From contig CBDBCV010000012.1 of the NCBI GenBank assembly GCA_965203455.1, positions 175,911 through 239,910 of the forward strand: a DNA stretch of 64,000 bases, written 5' to 3'. Shown here in pieces: positions 1,289-6,862 of the stretch. Numbering within the stretch: the first letter of the stretch is position 1; each line of letters opens with the position of its first letter. Under the pieces are notes generated by a model, which saw only the letters and a list, made by a program, of their open reading frames with translations, was not told the DNA's origin and did no database searches. Both the position numbers and the translations under genes were made by a program. Source of the stretch: Alphaproteobacteria bacterium. Its GTDB lineage: Bacteria > Pseudomonadota > Alphaproteobacteria > MPNO01.

Positions 1289-2098
1289 TCACGGCAGCCG
1301 CACCTGCACCTTCGACGACTTGCCGCCGTCGTCGACGAAGCGCCTGAGCGCGTCGTGGAAATAGGGGTGCTCGACCGAGACCATGACGTTCCTGATCTCG
1401 TACTCGGTCGCCTCCTCGATCGAGCGCCGCCAGCCCTGGTGGAAGCTCTCCTTGGCCATCGCCTGGAGGTGGGTCGGCGCGGCGGCGAGGTCGCGGGCGA
1501 TGGCGTCCACGTTGGCGGCGAACGCGTCCCCGGGGTAGACCCGGTTGGCGATGCCCCAGTCGAGCGCCTCCCGCGCGTCGAGGGTACGGTTGGTGATCAT
1601 CATCTCCTGCGCACGCCGAAACCCCACGATCTTCGCGAGCGAATACGAGGTGGTCGCGTCGTTGGCGAGCCCGATGGTGTGCCAGGCGCAGAGGAAGCGG
1701 GCCTGCTCGGAGCACACCACGAGGTCGGAGCAGAGCGCCATGCCGAGCCCGGAGCCCGCCGCCGCCCCGTTCACCGCCGACATCACCGGCTTCGGGATAT
1801 GGACGATCTTGTGCAGCACCAGGTGCCACCACATCGCGAGGTCGCGGAAATGGGCCGAGACCGCCGCGATTCCGTCCTCCAGCGGCGGGATCTCCCTGAG
1901 GTTGAACCCGGCGCAGAAGGCACGGCCCTCGCCGGTCAGCACGACCGCGCCGATATCGGAGTCCGCCTCGCAGGCGTTGAGCGCATCGAGCAGTTCCCTG
2001 ACGCCCTGCCCGGTGAGCGCGTTGGCGGCCTCGGGCATCGCGAAGACGATGCGCCCGACCCCATCGGCTTTCTCGAGGCGGAGGCATTCGTAGGTCAT
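1289..2098 (-). CDS. fcbB: 4-chlorobenzoyl-CoA dehalogenase (crotonase family)
   Basis: 269 aa; FCAGFNLREIP, WWH (catalytic His), CAWHTIGLANDATTSYSLA (Trp and nucleophile Asp), AAAPTHLQAMAKE match Pseudomonas CBS3-type dehalogenase as recalled. Confidence 0.9.
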   Translation of the reverse strand: MTYECLRLEKADGVGRIVFAMPEAANALTGQGVRELLDALNACEADSDIGAVVLTGEGRAFCAGFNLREIPPLEDGIAAVSAHFRDLAMWWHLVLHKIVHIPKPVMSAVNGAAAGSGLGMALCSDLVVCSEQARFLCAWHTIGLANDATTSYSLAKIVGFRRAQEMMITNRTLDAREALDWGIANRVYPGDAFAANVDAIARDLAAAPTHLQAMAKESFHQGWRRSIEEATEYEIRNVMVSVEHPYFHDALRRFVDDGGKSSKVQVRLP

Positions 2099-2121
2099 GC
2101 GATCCCCTCTCCTTGCATCCC

Positions 2122-2213
2122 GTCCCTCGATACGGCGCTGGCGCGCCTACTCGGGATGAGGGTTTCCTTTTCCCTCACCCTGAGTAGCGGCCGCAGGCCG
2201 CGTATCGAAGGGC
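2122..2213. repeat. REP-like inverted doublet, family A
   Basis: CCTCGATACG-stemloop-CTACTCGGGATGAGG followed by an inverted unit; overlaps 3' end of the hydrolase. Confidence 0.9.
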
Positions 2214-3052: not shown

Positions 3053-4032
3053 CAAGCGCCCTCCCCGGTGAGGTCCGAAACGAGCCTGCGCGCCATCGCG
3101 CCGACCACCCGGCGGCGGTACCAGGGCTGGACCGTGGTGGTCCGCATCGGCTTCGCTTGCGTCCGCACCGTGTCGCGCAGCGTGTCGAGCTCGTCGTCGC
3201 CGAGCGGGCCGCCGACGAAAGACTCGATCTTCCCGACCCGGTGCGGATAGGGGTTGACCGCGGTCAGCGCGATGTCGAGCGAGGCGACCCTGCCGCCCTC
3301 CATCGCGAGCGCAACTGCGACGCCCGCCAGCGGGAAGTCGATCGAGCCCCGGATGCGCGACTTGCGGTAGCCCGACGGGATCCCCGCGCCCGCCTTCGGC
3401 AAATGGAGCGCCACCAGCAGCTCGCCGTCTTCGAGCGCGAGATGGTCCATCCCGTCGTTGCGGTAGAGCGCGTCGAGCTTCACCCGGCGCCGTCCCTCGG
3501 CGGAGGCGAGCGTGACCTCGGCGCCGTGCACCAGCGCCGCCGGCGCGAGGTCGCCCGAGAAGGCGGCGAAGCAGCGCTTGCCGCCCGGCGCGACGTGGCA
3601 CACCTCGCCCCGGTGCTTGAGGCAGTAGTCGTTCGACTTCCGCCACCATTCGCTCTGGTTGTAGAACAGGCAGCGCGTGTCGAGGCAGAGATTGCCGCCC
3701 ACCGTGCCGTAGTTGCGGTGGGTGGGTCCCGCGACCTCGGCGGCGGCCTCGGCGACCGCGCGGTAGCCCCGCCCGACCGCCTCGTGCGCCGCGACGGCCG
3801 ACAGCGGCACCGCGGCGCCGATATCGATCCCGTCCGGCCCGGCGGCGATCTCGTTGAGCTCCTCGATTCCTGTCAGATCGACCAGCGCGGCGGGCTGCTC
3901 GATGCCGCGGCGGATGTTGACCACCATGTCGGTGCCGCCGGCGAGGTACTTCGCGCCCTCTTCCGCGCGCAGCCGGACCGCGTCCTCGACCGTATCCGGC
4001 CGCTCCAGGGTCATCGCGGGCATCAGCTCCAT
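3052..4032 (-). CDS. hcrB: 4-hydroxybenzoyl-CoA reductase beta subunit (FAD, [4Fe-4S])
   Basis: AGGTD and TVGGNLCLDTRC..WWR..CLK..CH..C Cys-rich insert diagnostic of HcrB/HbaD. Confidence 0.9.
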   Translation of the reverse strand: MELMPAMTLERPDTVEDAVRLRAEEGAKYLAGGTDMVVNIRRGIEQPAALVDLTGIEELNEIAAGPDGIDIGAAVPLSAVAAHEAVGRGYRAVAEAAAEVAGPTHRNYGTVGGNLCLDTRCLFYNQSEWWRKSNDYCLKHRGEVCHVAPGGKRCFAAFSGDLAPAALVHGAEVTLASAEGRRRVKLDALYRNDGMDHLALEDGELLVALHLPKAGAGIPSGYRKSRIRGSIDFPLAGVAVALAMEGGRVASLDIALTAVNPYPHRVGKIESFVGGPLGDDELDTLRDTVRTQAKPMRTTTVQPWYRRRVVGAMARRLVSDLTGEGA

Positions 4033-6380
4033 CAGGCGTCTCCCCCGCCCGCGCGCGCCGCGACCCGGCGGTCGGTCTCCTGCTTCTCCAGGAGCGCCAT
4101 CAGCCGGTCCGGCGTCAGCGGCAGCTCGGTCGCGCGGACCCCGACGGCGTCGGCCACCGCGCTCGCCAGCGCCGGCAGGAAGTTGGCGAGCGAGGTCTCG
4201 CCCGCCTCCTTGGCGCCGAACGGGCCGTGGGGATCGGCGCTCTCGACGATATGGGTCTCGATGGGGGGCGACTCGACGATGGTCGGCACGCGATAATCCA
4301 GCATGTTGCCGGTGATGCCGAGCCCGTCATGGTAGCGGGTCTCCTCCGACAGCGCCTGGCCCATCCCCATCCAGACCGAGCCCTCGATCTGGCCCTCGAC
4401 CGAGAGCGGGTTGAGCGCCTTGCCGCAATCGTGCGCGACCCAGACCTTGTCGACCCTGATCTCGCAGGTCTCGGGGTCGACCTCGACCTCGCAGACCAGC
4501 GCCGAATAGGCGAACGCCATGGTGCCGCCGATCGCCGCACCCCGGTATTTCCGCCCGCCCCAGGATTCCGGGATGGTGTCGAAGGTGCCCTTGACGGCGA
4601 GCGTCCCGGTGCCTTCGAGGGCGGCCATCACGACTTCCTTCCAGCTCAGCCCCTCGTCCTGGGTGCCGGCGCGGTAGACGTCGCCCAGGCACTCGACGTC
4701 CTCGGGCCGAACCTCCAGCTTCCGCGCCGCCGCCTCGATCAGCAGCGCCTTCAGGTTGTTCGCCGCGTCGATGGCGGCGTTGCCCACCATGTAGGTGACG
4801 CGCGACGAATACGACCCGTTGTCCTTGGGCGTCAGCGCGCTGTCCGACGCGACGACGTTGATCCGCGAGATATCGATCCCGAGGACCTCTGCGACGCATT
4901 GCGCGAGCACCGTCGATGAGCCCTGGCCGATCTCGGCGGCGCCGGTCAGCAGCGTCACCGAGGCGTCCCAGTCGACCCGGAGGTGGATCGTCGCGTGCGG
5001 CTCGCCGGTCCAGTGCTTGGGCTTCGACGCGCCCGAGATGTAGTGCGAGCACGCCATGCCGAGCCCGCGGTTCGGGCCGAGCCTGCCCTTGCGCGCCTTC
5101 CAGCCGGACGCCTCCTCGACGATGTCGAGGCATTCGGGCAGCCCGTAGGAGTTCACCATCAGATCGTTGGCGGTGAAGCCCGGCGCGGTCATCAGGTTGG
5201 CGCGGCGGACCACGAACGGATCGAGGCCGAGCTCGTCCGCCATCGCGTCCATCAGGCTCTCGAAGGCGAAGCGGATATTGACCGTGCCGTGGCCCCGGAA
5301 CGCGCCCGGCGGCGGCATGTTGGTCAGCACCCGGAAGCCCTTGTACTTGACGTTCTCCAGATCGTAGATCGCGAACAGCATCGAGCCGTTGTAGAGGATG
5401 GTGACGATGCCGTAGCCCGAATAGCCGCCGGCGCGGTGCACCGACTCGCACTCGACGGCGGTGATCCTGCCTTCCCGGGTCATGCCGATCTTCAGCTTGA
5501 CCGCGGTCTCCTGGCGTCCGCGGTGGGTGATGAAGGTCTCCTCCCGGCTCAGCACCAGGCGGACCGTGCCGCGCGCCTTGCGGGCCAAGAGCGCCGCGAC
5601 CAGCTCGACGTGCAGCGCCTCGGTGCGGCAGCCGAACCCGCCGCCGACATGGGGCTTGATCACGCGGATGTCGGACTGCTCCATGCCGAGCGTGCGCGCC
5701 AGCATCAGGTGGACGTAGTAGGGCACCTGGGTCGAGGCGCGGACGGTCATCCTGCCGCGGCCCGAATCGTATTCGGCCTGGGCGGCGTGGGGCTCGCTCT
5801 GGACCTGGCAGACCTCGCCCAGCTGGTAGATGTCCTCGCGCACCAGGTCGGCGGCGGCGAAGCCCGCCCCGGTGTCGCCAATCTCGAAGTCGACCTCGCG
5901 CTCGATATTGCCCGGCCGTTCCTCGTGGAGCTGGACCGCGTCGTCGGCCCGCGCCTCCTCGGCGGTGAAGTAGGCCGGCAATTCCTCGTACGCGACCTCG
6001 ATCAGGTCGAGCGCGCGTTGCGCCGTCGCGGTGTCCTCGGCGGCGACCGCCGCCACCGCCTCGCCGCGGTAGCGCACCCGGTCGCGGGCGAGCGCGTACT
6101 CGTTCATCGCGATGGGGAGGACGCCGAACGTGTCGGCGCAGTCCGCGCCGGTGACCACGGCATGCACGCCCGGCAGCGCCTCCGCCTTCGAGGTGTCGAT
6201 GCCGACGATCCGCGCATGCGCCACCGGGCTCCGCAGGATCCGCCCGGTCAGCTCCTCCTGCGCGATGAAGTCGGCGGTGTAGAGCGCCTTGCCCGAAACC
6301 TTCTCGGGCCCGTCGACCAGCGGCATCGGCACGCCGATCGACTGTACCGGCGCCGGCGCGGCTCCCGTCGCGTCGCTCAT
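4032..6380 (-). CDS. hcrA: 4-hydroxybenzoyl-CoA reductase alpha subunit (molybdopterin)
   Basis: Xanthine oxidase family: [46 protein letters not shown] at 6380 overlaps hcrC stop. Confidence 0.9.
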
Positions 6381-6862
6381 GCCGCTTCCTCCCGGCCCGC
6401 GATCTCGTCGGCGGCGGCGCGCACCGCCTCGATGATCTTGATGTAGCCCGTGCAGCGGCAGATGTTGGCCGCCATCCCGTCGCGGATCGCGCCCTCGTCC
6501 GGGTCCGGCTCGGCGCGCAGCAGCCCCTCCGCCGCCATGATCATGCCCGGCGTGCAGAACCCGCACTGGGCGCCGAGTTTCACGTGAAACCCCCGCTGGA
6601 TCGCCGACAGCCGCCCCGAGGTTTCCAGCGACTCGATCGTCTCGACCCGCGCATCCTGGCAGGAGTTCGCGAGCGTCAGGCAGGAATGGCGCGGCCGGTC
6701 GTCGACCAGCACCGTGCAGGCGCCGCACTCGCCGCCGTCGCAGCCGATCTTGGTGCCGGTCAGCCCCGCGACCTCGCGCAGATAGTCCACCAGCAGCATG
6801 TTGTCGGCGACCACGTCGTCGCGCCGCCGCCCGTTGAGCGTCAGGGACAGTACGGTCTTCAT
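6377..6862 (-). CDS. hcrC: 4-hydroxybenzoyl-CoA reductase gamma subunit (2x[2Fe-2S])
   Basis: [28 protein letters not shown]. Confidence 0.9.
6576..6591. promoter_or_regulatory. parS-like site inside hcrC
   Basis: aGTTTCACGTGAAACc, perfect 14-bp core. Confidence 0.7.

Follow-up and report, generated by a model that had tools for sequence, protein, structure and literature searches.

Can a bacterium convert a para-halogenated benzoate to benzoyl-coenzyme A (benzoyl-CoA) while keeping the aromatic acid as its CoA ester throughout? This question is raised by a 64,000-nucleotide stretch of the genome of a sponge-associated alphaproteobacterium (GCA_965203455.1, contig CBDBCV010000012.1; C12:175911-239910), hereafter the window. 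Within its first 8 kb lie five co-oriented genes on the minus strand. They encode the three subunits of a predicted molybdenum (Mo)-dependent 4-hydroxybenzoyl-CoA reductase (HcrCAB), an alpha/beta-fold hydrolase (ABH) and a crotonase related to 4-chlorobenzoyl-CoA dehalogenase (FcbB). An earlier note on this DNA proposed that FcbB and HcrCAB are chained into an oxygen-independent route from 4-halobenzoate to benzoyl-CoA. Our analysis supports the chaining and argues against the oxygen independence. We favour, with some reserve, a reading in which a MarR-controlled five-gene operon would keep para-substituted benzoates as CoA thioesters and convert them to benzoyl-CoA.

Organization of the operon

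The coordinates of the open reading frames (ORFs) and their junctions were read directly from the sequence. The features of the operon are as follows.

6377-6862, minus strand: hcrC, 161 aa, [2Fe-2S] gamma subunit with Pfam domains Fer2_2 and Fer2
4032-6380, minus strand: hcrA, 782 aa, molybdopterin alpha subunit
3052-4032, minus strand: hcrB, 326 aa, FAD beta subunit with a Cys-rich [4Fe-4S] insertion
2147-3052, minus strand: alpha/beta-fold hydrolase (ABH), ORF of 301 aa, native length 278 aa
1289-2098, minus strand: fcbB (crotonase), 269 aa, predicted 4-chlorobenzoyl-CoA dehalogenase orthologue
about 2101-2209, no strand assigned: REP-like palindromic dispersed element of about 109 nt at the ABH/fcbB junction
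1121-1134, minus strand: terminator-like hairpin about 155 nt past the fcbB stop, a weak candidate from a consensus scan only

The hcrC stop and the hcrA start have ATGA in common, an overlap of 4 nt. The hcrA/hcrB and hcrB/ABH junctions each read TGATG, an overlap of 1 nt, and 48 nt separate the ABH stop from the fcbB start. Coordinates and junctions agree exactly with the earlier description of four coupled genes followed by fcbB 48 bp downstream on the same strand. The 48-bp gap is present but not ancestral. In two related loci (L005 and L008) the start of fcbB and the end of the hydrolase gene share 4 nt, and a relative's DNA contig that is free of the REP-like element joins position 2100 straight to 2210. 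The hydrolase of another relative (L186) stops after ...FLERRL, 23 codons earlier. That stop is lost in the window, and the last 23 codons of the ABH ORF lie in the element. Both the gap and these codons are thus products of the insertion. Because fcbB overlaps the hydrolase stop in L005 and L008 and the REP-like element makes the gap here, the junctions indicate that all five genes were translationally coupled ancestrally.

BLAST finds the element at least 172 times in the genome. Its predicted folding energy is -63.3 kcal/mol (z = -4.65), and no T-run stands behind it. The same REP-like family is also found at 6863-6960 and 7330-7440 in the window. The terminator consensus scan of the region gave 2 sites against 2.5 expected, and the consensus promoter scan gave no hcrC promoter on the minus strand.

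The Mo enzyme is a predicted 4-hydroxybenzoyl-CoA reductase

Pfam assigns a three-subunit xanthine-dehydrogenase architecture to the Mo enzyme. HcrA passes the NCBIfam equivalog TIGR03194 (1132.5 bits, cut-off 994.55). It matches PDB 1RM6_A, from the Thauera 4-hydroxybenzoyl-CoA reductase, at 956.7 bits, and the runner-up chain reaches 281.6 bits. The HcrA model has 58 matches in the genome, about 50 of them full-length paralogues, and the HcrA of the window alone is above the cut-off. HcrB passes TIGR03195 (412.2 bits, cut-off 404.55) and matches 1RM6_B at 291.5 bits. All five cysteines of its Cys-rich stretch, C-x4-C-x15-C-x7-C-x8-C, align with the Thauera chain. This stretch sets HcrB apart from other FAD subunits, and its cysteines include the presumed ligands of an extra [4Fe-4S] cluster. 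The loop is linked to electron delivery into the enzyme. Together, the equivalog scores, the similarity to 1RM6 and the conserved loop identify the protein, at the level of sequence, as a true HcrCAB orthologue that lies within the HcrA equivalog, in agreement with the earlier assignment.

The xanthine-dehydrogenase family consists mostly of hydroxylases, and the large number of paralogues in this genome might be taken to favour such an activity here. The Mo enzyme would then convert benzoyl-CoA to 4-hydroxybenzoyl-CoA, both enzymes would converge on that ester, and a thioesterase would release it for PobA. We consider this very improbable. The enzyme is the orthologue of a reductase and retains the Cys-rich loop of HcrB, BoxB and BoxC already handle benzoyl-CoA, and the thioesterase that such a scheme requires is broken in this genome.

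About 50 full-length large subunits of the xanthine-dehydrogenase type are unusually many for a 6.2-Mb genome. Several of these paralogues adjoin aryl/acyl-CoA ligase genes, for example at C2:88711-94891, C17:163313-167537 and C3:110461-115726. The adjoining ligases include both of those that exceed the benzoate-CoA ligase cut-off.

The crotonase is an FcbB orthologue

Neither the crotonase nor the ligase described below has a dedicated NCBIfam model, the best hits of both being far under the respective cut-offs, and the two were identified through PDB sequences. No NCBIfam model is above its cut-off for the crotonase (best 164 bits against 351). The protein matches PDB 1NZY, 4-chlorobenzoyl-CoA dehalogenase, at 327.5 bits, and the next crotonase family reaches 121 bits. 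In 1NZY numbering it retains F64, F82, A86, W89, H90, G113, W137, D145 and E232. Asp145 is the nucleophile of the dehalogenase, according to PMC6100074. In all 22 orthologues compared, Asp145, His90 and Trp137 are kept, and so is Phe64 apart from four orthologues with I or V at this position. We take His90 to be the base, and the roles of Trp137, Phe64 and the other pocket residues are presumed in the same way. Position 114 is Ser here and G, S, A or V across the 22 orthologues, including those linked to a ligase. Gly114 presumably contributes its backbone NH to the oxyanion hole, and with a backbone contact the side chain may not matter. In a phylogenetic tree the 22 orthologues are split from generic crotonases by a long branch (support 97/93). 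The similarity to 1NZY and the conserved catalytic residues indicate that the crotonase is a true FcbB orthologue, as previously assigned, and predict that it acts as a dehalogenase.

Several positions that contact CoA deviate from the CBS3 enzyme (R24->A, R257->G and Y65->N). The examined relatives come from sponge metagenomes, and we reason that man-made 4-chlorobenzoate is unlikely to be the main substrate there. Both points speak for another leaving group. FcbB would act on a para-substituted benzoyl-CoA other than 4-chlorobenzoyl-CoA, for example one from a sponge-derived bromo- or iodo-aromatic or one with a non-halogen leaving group, and Hcr would then remove the hydroxyl. We regard this as quite unlikely. 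Apart from the variation at position 64, the residues presumed to line the benzoyl and halide pocket are kept across the 22 orthologues, including those linked to FcbA. The ligase in the same genome is closest to 4-chlorobenzoyl-CoA ligase, and nothing in the sequence indicates an alternative leaving group.

Linkage of fcbB and hcr is conserved within the family

The earlier note had suggested a search for fcbB next to hcrCAB in other genomes. We compared 24 public loci whose FcbB relatives are 49% identical or more. In nine of them hcr stands beside fcbB in the same order, and all nine are Defluviicoccus-like metagenome-assembled genomes (MAGs). Outside that group, an AMP-binding ligase lies at most two genes from fcbB in all 11 scanned loci, and hcr is found in none.

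A second comparison covered 20 genomes of the family in six genera (g1-g6). FcbB is present in 16 and HcrA is above the cut-off in 17, with one additional partial match. Of the 16 genomes with FcbB, 11 have fcbB and hcrA no more than about 4 kb apart. In the remaining ones the genes are far apart (one genome) or on separate small contigs (four genomes). HcrA occurs without FcbB in two genomes, one of which retains an 85-residue fcbB remnant. Neither gene is found in two others, and FcbB without HcrA is found in none. In the sister family f4, FcbB is present in 7 of 16 genomes. The neighbourhood of the two genes is not a matter of chance. Judged from gene order, the linkage is genuine and of long standing in the family, and it is a trait of this family rather than a general one.

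Other partners of fcbB were seen in these comparisons. In Burkholderiales MAGs, the next gene after MarR, fcbB and fcbA encodes a conserved protein some 700 residues long (L013:12315-14444, L015:11222-13324, L016:3850-5931 and L017:3036-5165). Its sole Pfam signal is a 4Fe-4S dicluster domain, detected in two of the four scanned. Behind it stands a binding protein in three of the four loci and an AcrB-type transporter in L016. This protein may be a partner of the Fcb route in Burkholderiales. In an Acidimicrobiia MAG (L026:891-2708), a 49%-identical FcbB is followed by a large subunit of the xanthine-dehydrogenase family that shares only 29% identity with HcrA. Here a dehalogenase and a Mo enzyme may have been paired independently.

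Other steps of the proposed route in the genome

The window was said to contain no CoA ligase. Indeed, Pfam detects no AMP-binding domain among its 46 ORFs, and the 58 matches to TIGR02262 in the genome all lie outside it. The earlier note suggested that a ligase and genes for benzoyl-CoA degradation be sought elsewhere in the genome. An FcbA orthologue, BoxB and BoxC are found, and a benzoyl-CoA reductase is not.

The FcbA orthologue is unlinked, at C13:490515-492074. It matches the 4-chlorobenzoyl-CoA ligase structures 3CW8/1T5D at 433 bits, with the next chain at 217, and shares 64% identity with the ligase that adjoins fcbB in locus L019. Orthologues are present in 18 of the 20 family genomes and adjoin fcbB in genus g2 (G001 and G002).

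BoxB (852.2 bits, cut-off 499.1) and BoxC (922.6 bits, cut-off 712.3) are encoded by intact, adjacent genes at C2:125033-128211 (L098:7033-10211). They form the sole benzoyl-CoA-consuming system found in the genome. An amidase gene comes after boxB, and a generic acyl-CoA ligase gene is divergent from the boxC-boxB pair. Among 53 genomes of the order, BoxB is above the cut-off in all 41 that have HcrA above the cut-off.

No class I or class II benzoyl-CoA reductase and no Oah, the ring hydrolase of the anaerobic pathway, was found. The HGD-D family, which covers the subunits of class I benzoyl-CoA reductase, has no match in this 100%-complete genome, in the 20 family genomes or in the 53 order genomes. 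The best match to Oah in this genome reaches 82.6 bits against a cut-off of 464.45. An AOR-family protein was considered as a class II benzoyl-CoA reductase (BamB) and rejected. It matches aldehyde:ferredoxin oxidoreductases of the tungsten type, with 1AOR as its best PDB match (193 bits), none of its eight PDB matches is a benzoyl-CoA reductase (Bcr) chain, and its gene has no bam-like neighbours. The gene stands directly behind an acyl-CoA ligase gene (C11:402675-406071; L197:4676-8072). One copy is present in 16 of the 20 family genomes, which is unexpected in otherwise aerobic-looking organisms. The genome also contains a gene of the 2-oxoacid:ferredoxin oxidoreductase type. The presence of these two genes makes low-potential ferredoxin chemistry plausible.

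These results bear on a fully anaerobic route, in which 4-halobenzoate would be converted to benzoyl-CoA and then dearomatized reductively without oxygen. Both operon steps are oxygen-independent by known chemistry, and the two genes of the AOR and 2-oxoacid:ferredoxin oxidoreductase types do exist. Against the absence of HGD-D throughout the order, the low Oah score, the closer kinship of the AOR-family protein to 1AOR and the presence of BoxB and BoxC, such a route is hardly credible. The framing of the locus as oxygen-independent degradation is not sustained by the genome. Because BoxB and BoxC are present, an oxygen-requiring fate of benzoyl-CoA is most likely.

The favoured route would consist of four steps. 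The unlinked FcbA orthologue would convert 4-halobenzoate to 4-halobenzoyl-CoA. Asp145 of FcbB would then attack C4, the halide would leave, and hydrolysis of the aryl-enzyme would give 4-hydroxybenzoyl-CoA, as orthology and the catalytic residues suggest. By orthology, HcrCAB would catalyse the reductive dehydroxylation of this ester to benzoyl-CoA, with low-potential electrons presumably supplied by ferredoxin. BoxB and BoxC would finally draw benzoyl-CoA into the box pathway, which depends on oxygen, as the gene content of the genome suggests. Since 4-hydroxybenzoyl-CoA is common to FcbB and Hcr by known biochemistry, chaining of the two is the simplest reading. Both assignments hold, and the genes form one conserved, coupled operon, so this part of the earlier proposal stands. 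Of the grounds for rejection named in the earlier note, those that sequence can address do not apply: the Mo enzyme falls inside the HcrA equivalog, and the crotonase has the catalytic residues of a dehalogenase.

The regulator and a disrupted thioesterase

The region upstream of hcrC contains the following features.

6909-6930, minus strand: AT-rich inverted repeat TTGAC-N12-GTCAA, upstream of hcrC
7453-7890, plus strand: MarR-family regulator, divergent from hcrC, with Pfam domains MarR_2 and MarR
7887-7994, plus strand: remnant of an FcbC-like 4HBT-family thioesterase, about 36 codons, cut by IS66
8008-8946: IS66 transposase fragment, directly after the thioesterase remnant

The inverted repeat occurs once in the window, with 0 occurrences expected by chance, and stands only upstream of hcrC. 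It is kept in all six aligned upstream regions of relatives, in which the flanks have diverged, and also in L009. It is probably a promoter and MarR operator. The MarR gene is likewise divergent from hcrC in L005, L006, L008, L009, L012, L027 and L029. In the window the MarR ORF extends from 7054 to 7890, as an in-frame read-through from a GIY-YIG ORF (start 7054) across a REP-like linker. Pfam detects GIY-YIG at residues 5-76 and MarR_2/MarR at residues 162-221 of this ORF. In L008, a GIY-YIG gene of about 100 aa adjoins the MarR gene.

The thioesterase remnant is identical to the 139-aa thioesterase of L006 at 35 of 40 residues and then diverges. The full-length thioesterase of a relative has 1BVQ, 4-hydroxybenzoyl-CoA thioesterase, as its best PDB match (59 bits), with Asp17 aligned. 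These comparisons indicate that an FcbC-like thioesterase belongs to the ancestral cluster and has been destroyed by IS66 here. In relatives, the thioesterase in the divergent MarR operon would provide a second exit, to free 4-hydroxybenzoate. Its destruction would leave Hcr as the encoded exit in this genome. A DctP-type TRAP binding protein is also found near the cluster in relatives.

The hydrolase

ABH carries Pfam domains Abhydrolase_1/6, and its PDB sequence matches are weak (best 36.9 bits). Its AF2 model has a mean pLDDT of 82, and Foldseek matches it to enol-lactonase, aryl esterases and perhydrolases with TM of about 0.55-0.59. All 14 homologues compared share the motif GGSSSG, D221 and H224 without variation. 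Pfam, NCBIfam, PDB sequences, the ESM Atlas and AF2 with Foldseek point to no specific function, and to call it an esterase or a thioesterase would be no more than a guess. Homologues outside the family (53-60% identity) were scanned at five loci. An FAA-hydrolase gene adjoins in four and a CoA-transferase gene in one, and hcr is near none of the five.

Two contigs of one Defluviicoccus MAG (L183 and L186) carry two non-identical hcrB-ABH copies, with ABH 84% and 88% identical to that of the window. This suggests that the bin combines two strains or that the stretch was duplicated.

Habitat and expression

Of the sampled words of the window, 26-35% occur in sponge metagenome runs, and one run has long contigs with few differences. 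In one sponge and one coral metatranscriptome, short contigs that are roughly 88-96% alike fall on fcbB, ABH, hcrB and hcrA, and in the coral run also on hcrC. Contigs from RNA runs are no proof of transcription, their depth cannot rank expression, and carry-over of DNA is possible; they offer a weak hint that the operon is expressed. According to a 2026 paper (PMC12879404), an alphaproteobacterial 'HcrB' is up-regulated during the day in a sponge.

Points that weigh against the proposed route

A number of observations weigh against the favoured reading. Several of them concern a classical Fcb route, in which FcbA, FcbB and the FcbC-like thioesterase would turn 4-halobenzoate into free 4-hydroxybenzoate, to be oxidized by PobA. 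Hcr would be a bystander in the same regulon, there to process 4-hydroxybenzoyl-CoA of different origin, for instance from 4-hydroxybenzoate, or active only at low oxygen. The 139-aa 4HBT-family thioesterase with its similarity to 1BVQ stands behind MarR and beside hcr in nine family genomes. PobA is present in this genome. It is above the cut-off in nine of the 20 family genomes, all of genus g1 (9 of 11), and one more g1 match is below the cut-off. Because of the thioesterase beside hcr in nine relatives and PobA in this genome, the classical route to 4-hydroxybenzoate and protocatechuate may carry flux in relatives. In addition, fcbB was found at only 2 of 80 further HcrA loci, both from close kin. 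The other 78 carry hcrCAB without fcbB, which points to an independent life of the reductase.

As an account of this locus, however, the classical route appears unlikely to us. Translational coupling ties fcbB to the hcr operon rather than to that of the thioesterase. None of the five other genera has PobA, so those that bear Hcr and FcbB (g2-g6) show no PobA route. The thioesterase is destroyed in this genome, whereas hcrCAB, ABH and fcbB are intact, and two relatives (G009 and G013) keep the cluster with the thioesterase only as a 35-36% paralogue.

Other points concern the remaining steps of the five-gene, CoA-ester route. In genera g1, g3 and g6 the ligase gene stands apart from fcbB. The ligase is retained in G014 and G018, both of which have neither FcbB nor HcrA, and therefore it may serve another substrate. 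BoxA was not found in the genome (best match 29.4 bits against a cut-off of 459.2). BoxB is present in 51 of the 53 order genomes, and because it is nearly universal there, its co-occurrence with Hcr discriminates little. HcrC has TIGR03193 as its best NCBIfam match, at 242.6 bits, slightly below the cut-off of 257.8. In family f4, five of the seven genomes with FcbB also have HcrA, with the genes on different contigs or hundreds of kb apart. In the RNA runs, one contig bridges hcrB and ABH, and none bridges ABH and fcbB. The REP-like hairpin could reduce read-through from ABH into fcbB in this strain. Finally, all enzyme functions are deduced from sequence, and the supply of para-halogenated benzoates in the habitat is an assumption.

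Surroundings of the operon

The window is dense in insertion sequences, chiefly at 8008-23966, 36792-39801 and 53885-62291. Mobile elements and other genes outside the operon are listed below, with the IS66 fragment at 8008-8946 already given above.

10856-11431 and 20790-21791: further IS66 fragments
12194-13519, 16476-17801 and 36792-38078: three IS256 copies
18474-19820, 22650-23966 and 58146-59144: three IS3-type integrase ORFs
38266-39801 and 53885-55420: two DDE_Tnp_1/DUF772 copies
56735-57991: IS4-like gene
61422-62291: IS1595 gene
19858-20757: group II intron maturase
34388-36103 and 50107-51717: two UbiD-family (prFMN-type) decarboxylase genes
33500-34366: esterase
13831-15447 and 30803-32431: two GMC oxidoreductases
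44798-47080: penicillin-amidase-family gene

Just upstream of the window (C12:165237-170940; L099:237-5940), genes for an HpaB-family flavin monooxygenase, a DctPQM TRAP transporter and a PhyH-type protein stand together. The monooxygenase scores 252 bits, under the cut-off, and the PhyH-type protein has a weak match to 'chlorinating enzyme' (75 bits). This group is possibly related to halogenated or phenolic substrates.

Relation to known systems

The reductase resembles HcrCAB of Thauera aromatica (PDB 1RM6/1SB3) in its three subunits, the hcrCAB gene order, the Cys-rich [4Fe-4S] loop and the equivalog scores. HbaBCD of Rhodopseudomonas palustris is the counterpart of HcrCAB. Unlike the hosts of those reductases, the present one has no benzoyl-CoA reductase or Oah and carries BoxB and BoxC. 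The operon also differs from those systems in its additional ABH and fcbB genes, and the cluster contains no ligase or ferredoxin gene.

The FcbABC pathway for 4-chlorobenzoate, of the Pseudomonas sp. CBS3, Arthrobacter and Comamonas type, shares with this system the Asp145/His90/Trp137 machinery of FcbB, the FcbA orthologue and, ancestrally, an FcbC-like 4HBT thioesterase. In FcbABC systems fcbB stands beside fcbA, whereas here it is at the 3' end of the hcrCAB operon. The ligase is on another contig, and the thioesterase, inactivated in this genome, belongs to the divergent MarR operon. The expected product here would be benzoyl-CoA instead of free 4-hydroxybenzoate. The present genome resembles the aerobic box pathway, BoxABC, of the Azoarcus/Aromatoleum type in having BoxB and BoxC adjacent and above their cut-offs and differs in that no BoxA was found.

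Dehalogenation by another enzyme has also been described. According to PMC4992971, class I benzoyl-CoA reductase dehalogenates halobenzoyl-CoA. Both that route and the one proposed here would lead from a para-halogenated benzoyl-CoA to a halogen-free CoA ester without oxygen. In the former, the dearomatizing reductase itself performs the reaction, which is reductive and needs ATP. Here, that enzyme family is missing, and dehalogenation would be hydrolytic and would be followed by a separate Mo enzyme. A search of the text of PMC4992971, which deals with 4-fluorobenzoate, found no mention of an alternative that combines hydrolytic dehalogenation with Hcr.

In the literature searched, with subscription journals and supplements outside its scope, we found no paper on an enzyme or gene pairing of FcbB and Hcr and no description of an Hcr entry upstream of the box pathway. 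All parts of the system come from known families. What is new is their combination and the metabolic setting.

Implications

4-Hydroxybenzoyl-CoA reductase is regarded as an enzyme of anaerobic metabolism. A broader proposal is that this sponge-associated family uses an 'all-CoA' route from FcbB through HcrCAB to the box pathway, with Hcr routinely feeding a hybrid pathway that is aerobic. In this way they would harvest para-halogenated, probably brominated, aromatic acids made in the sponge, and ABH would be a new accessory enzyme. We offer this tentatively, as a possibility about which we are rather doubtful.

If the favoured route is correct, it would be a third way to degrade para-halogenated benzoates, besides FcbABC with an oxygenase and dehalogenation by benzoyl-CoA reductase. 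Retention of the CoA ester would save a second activation. 4-Hydroxybenzoyl-CoA reductase would then operate in organisms without anaerobic ring reduction, and the operon would be a marker for organohalogen turnover in sponge microbiomes.

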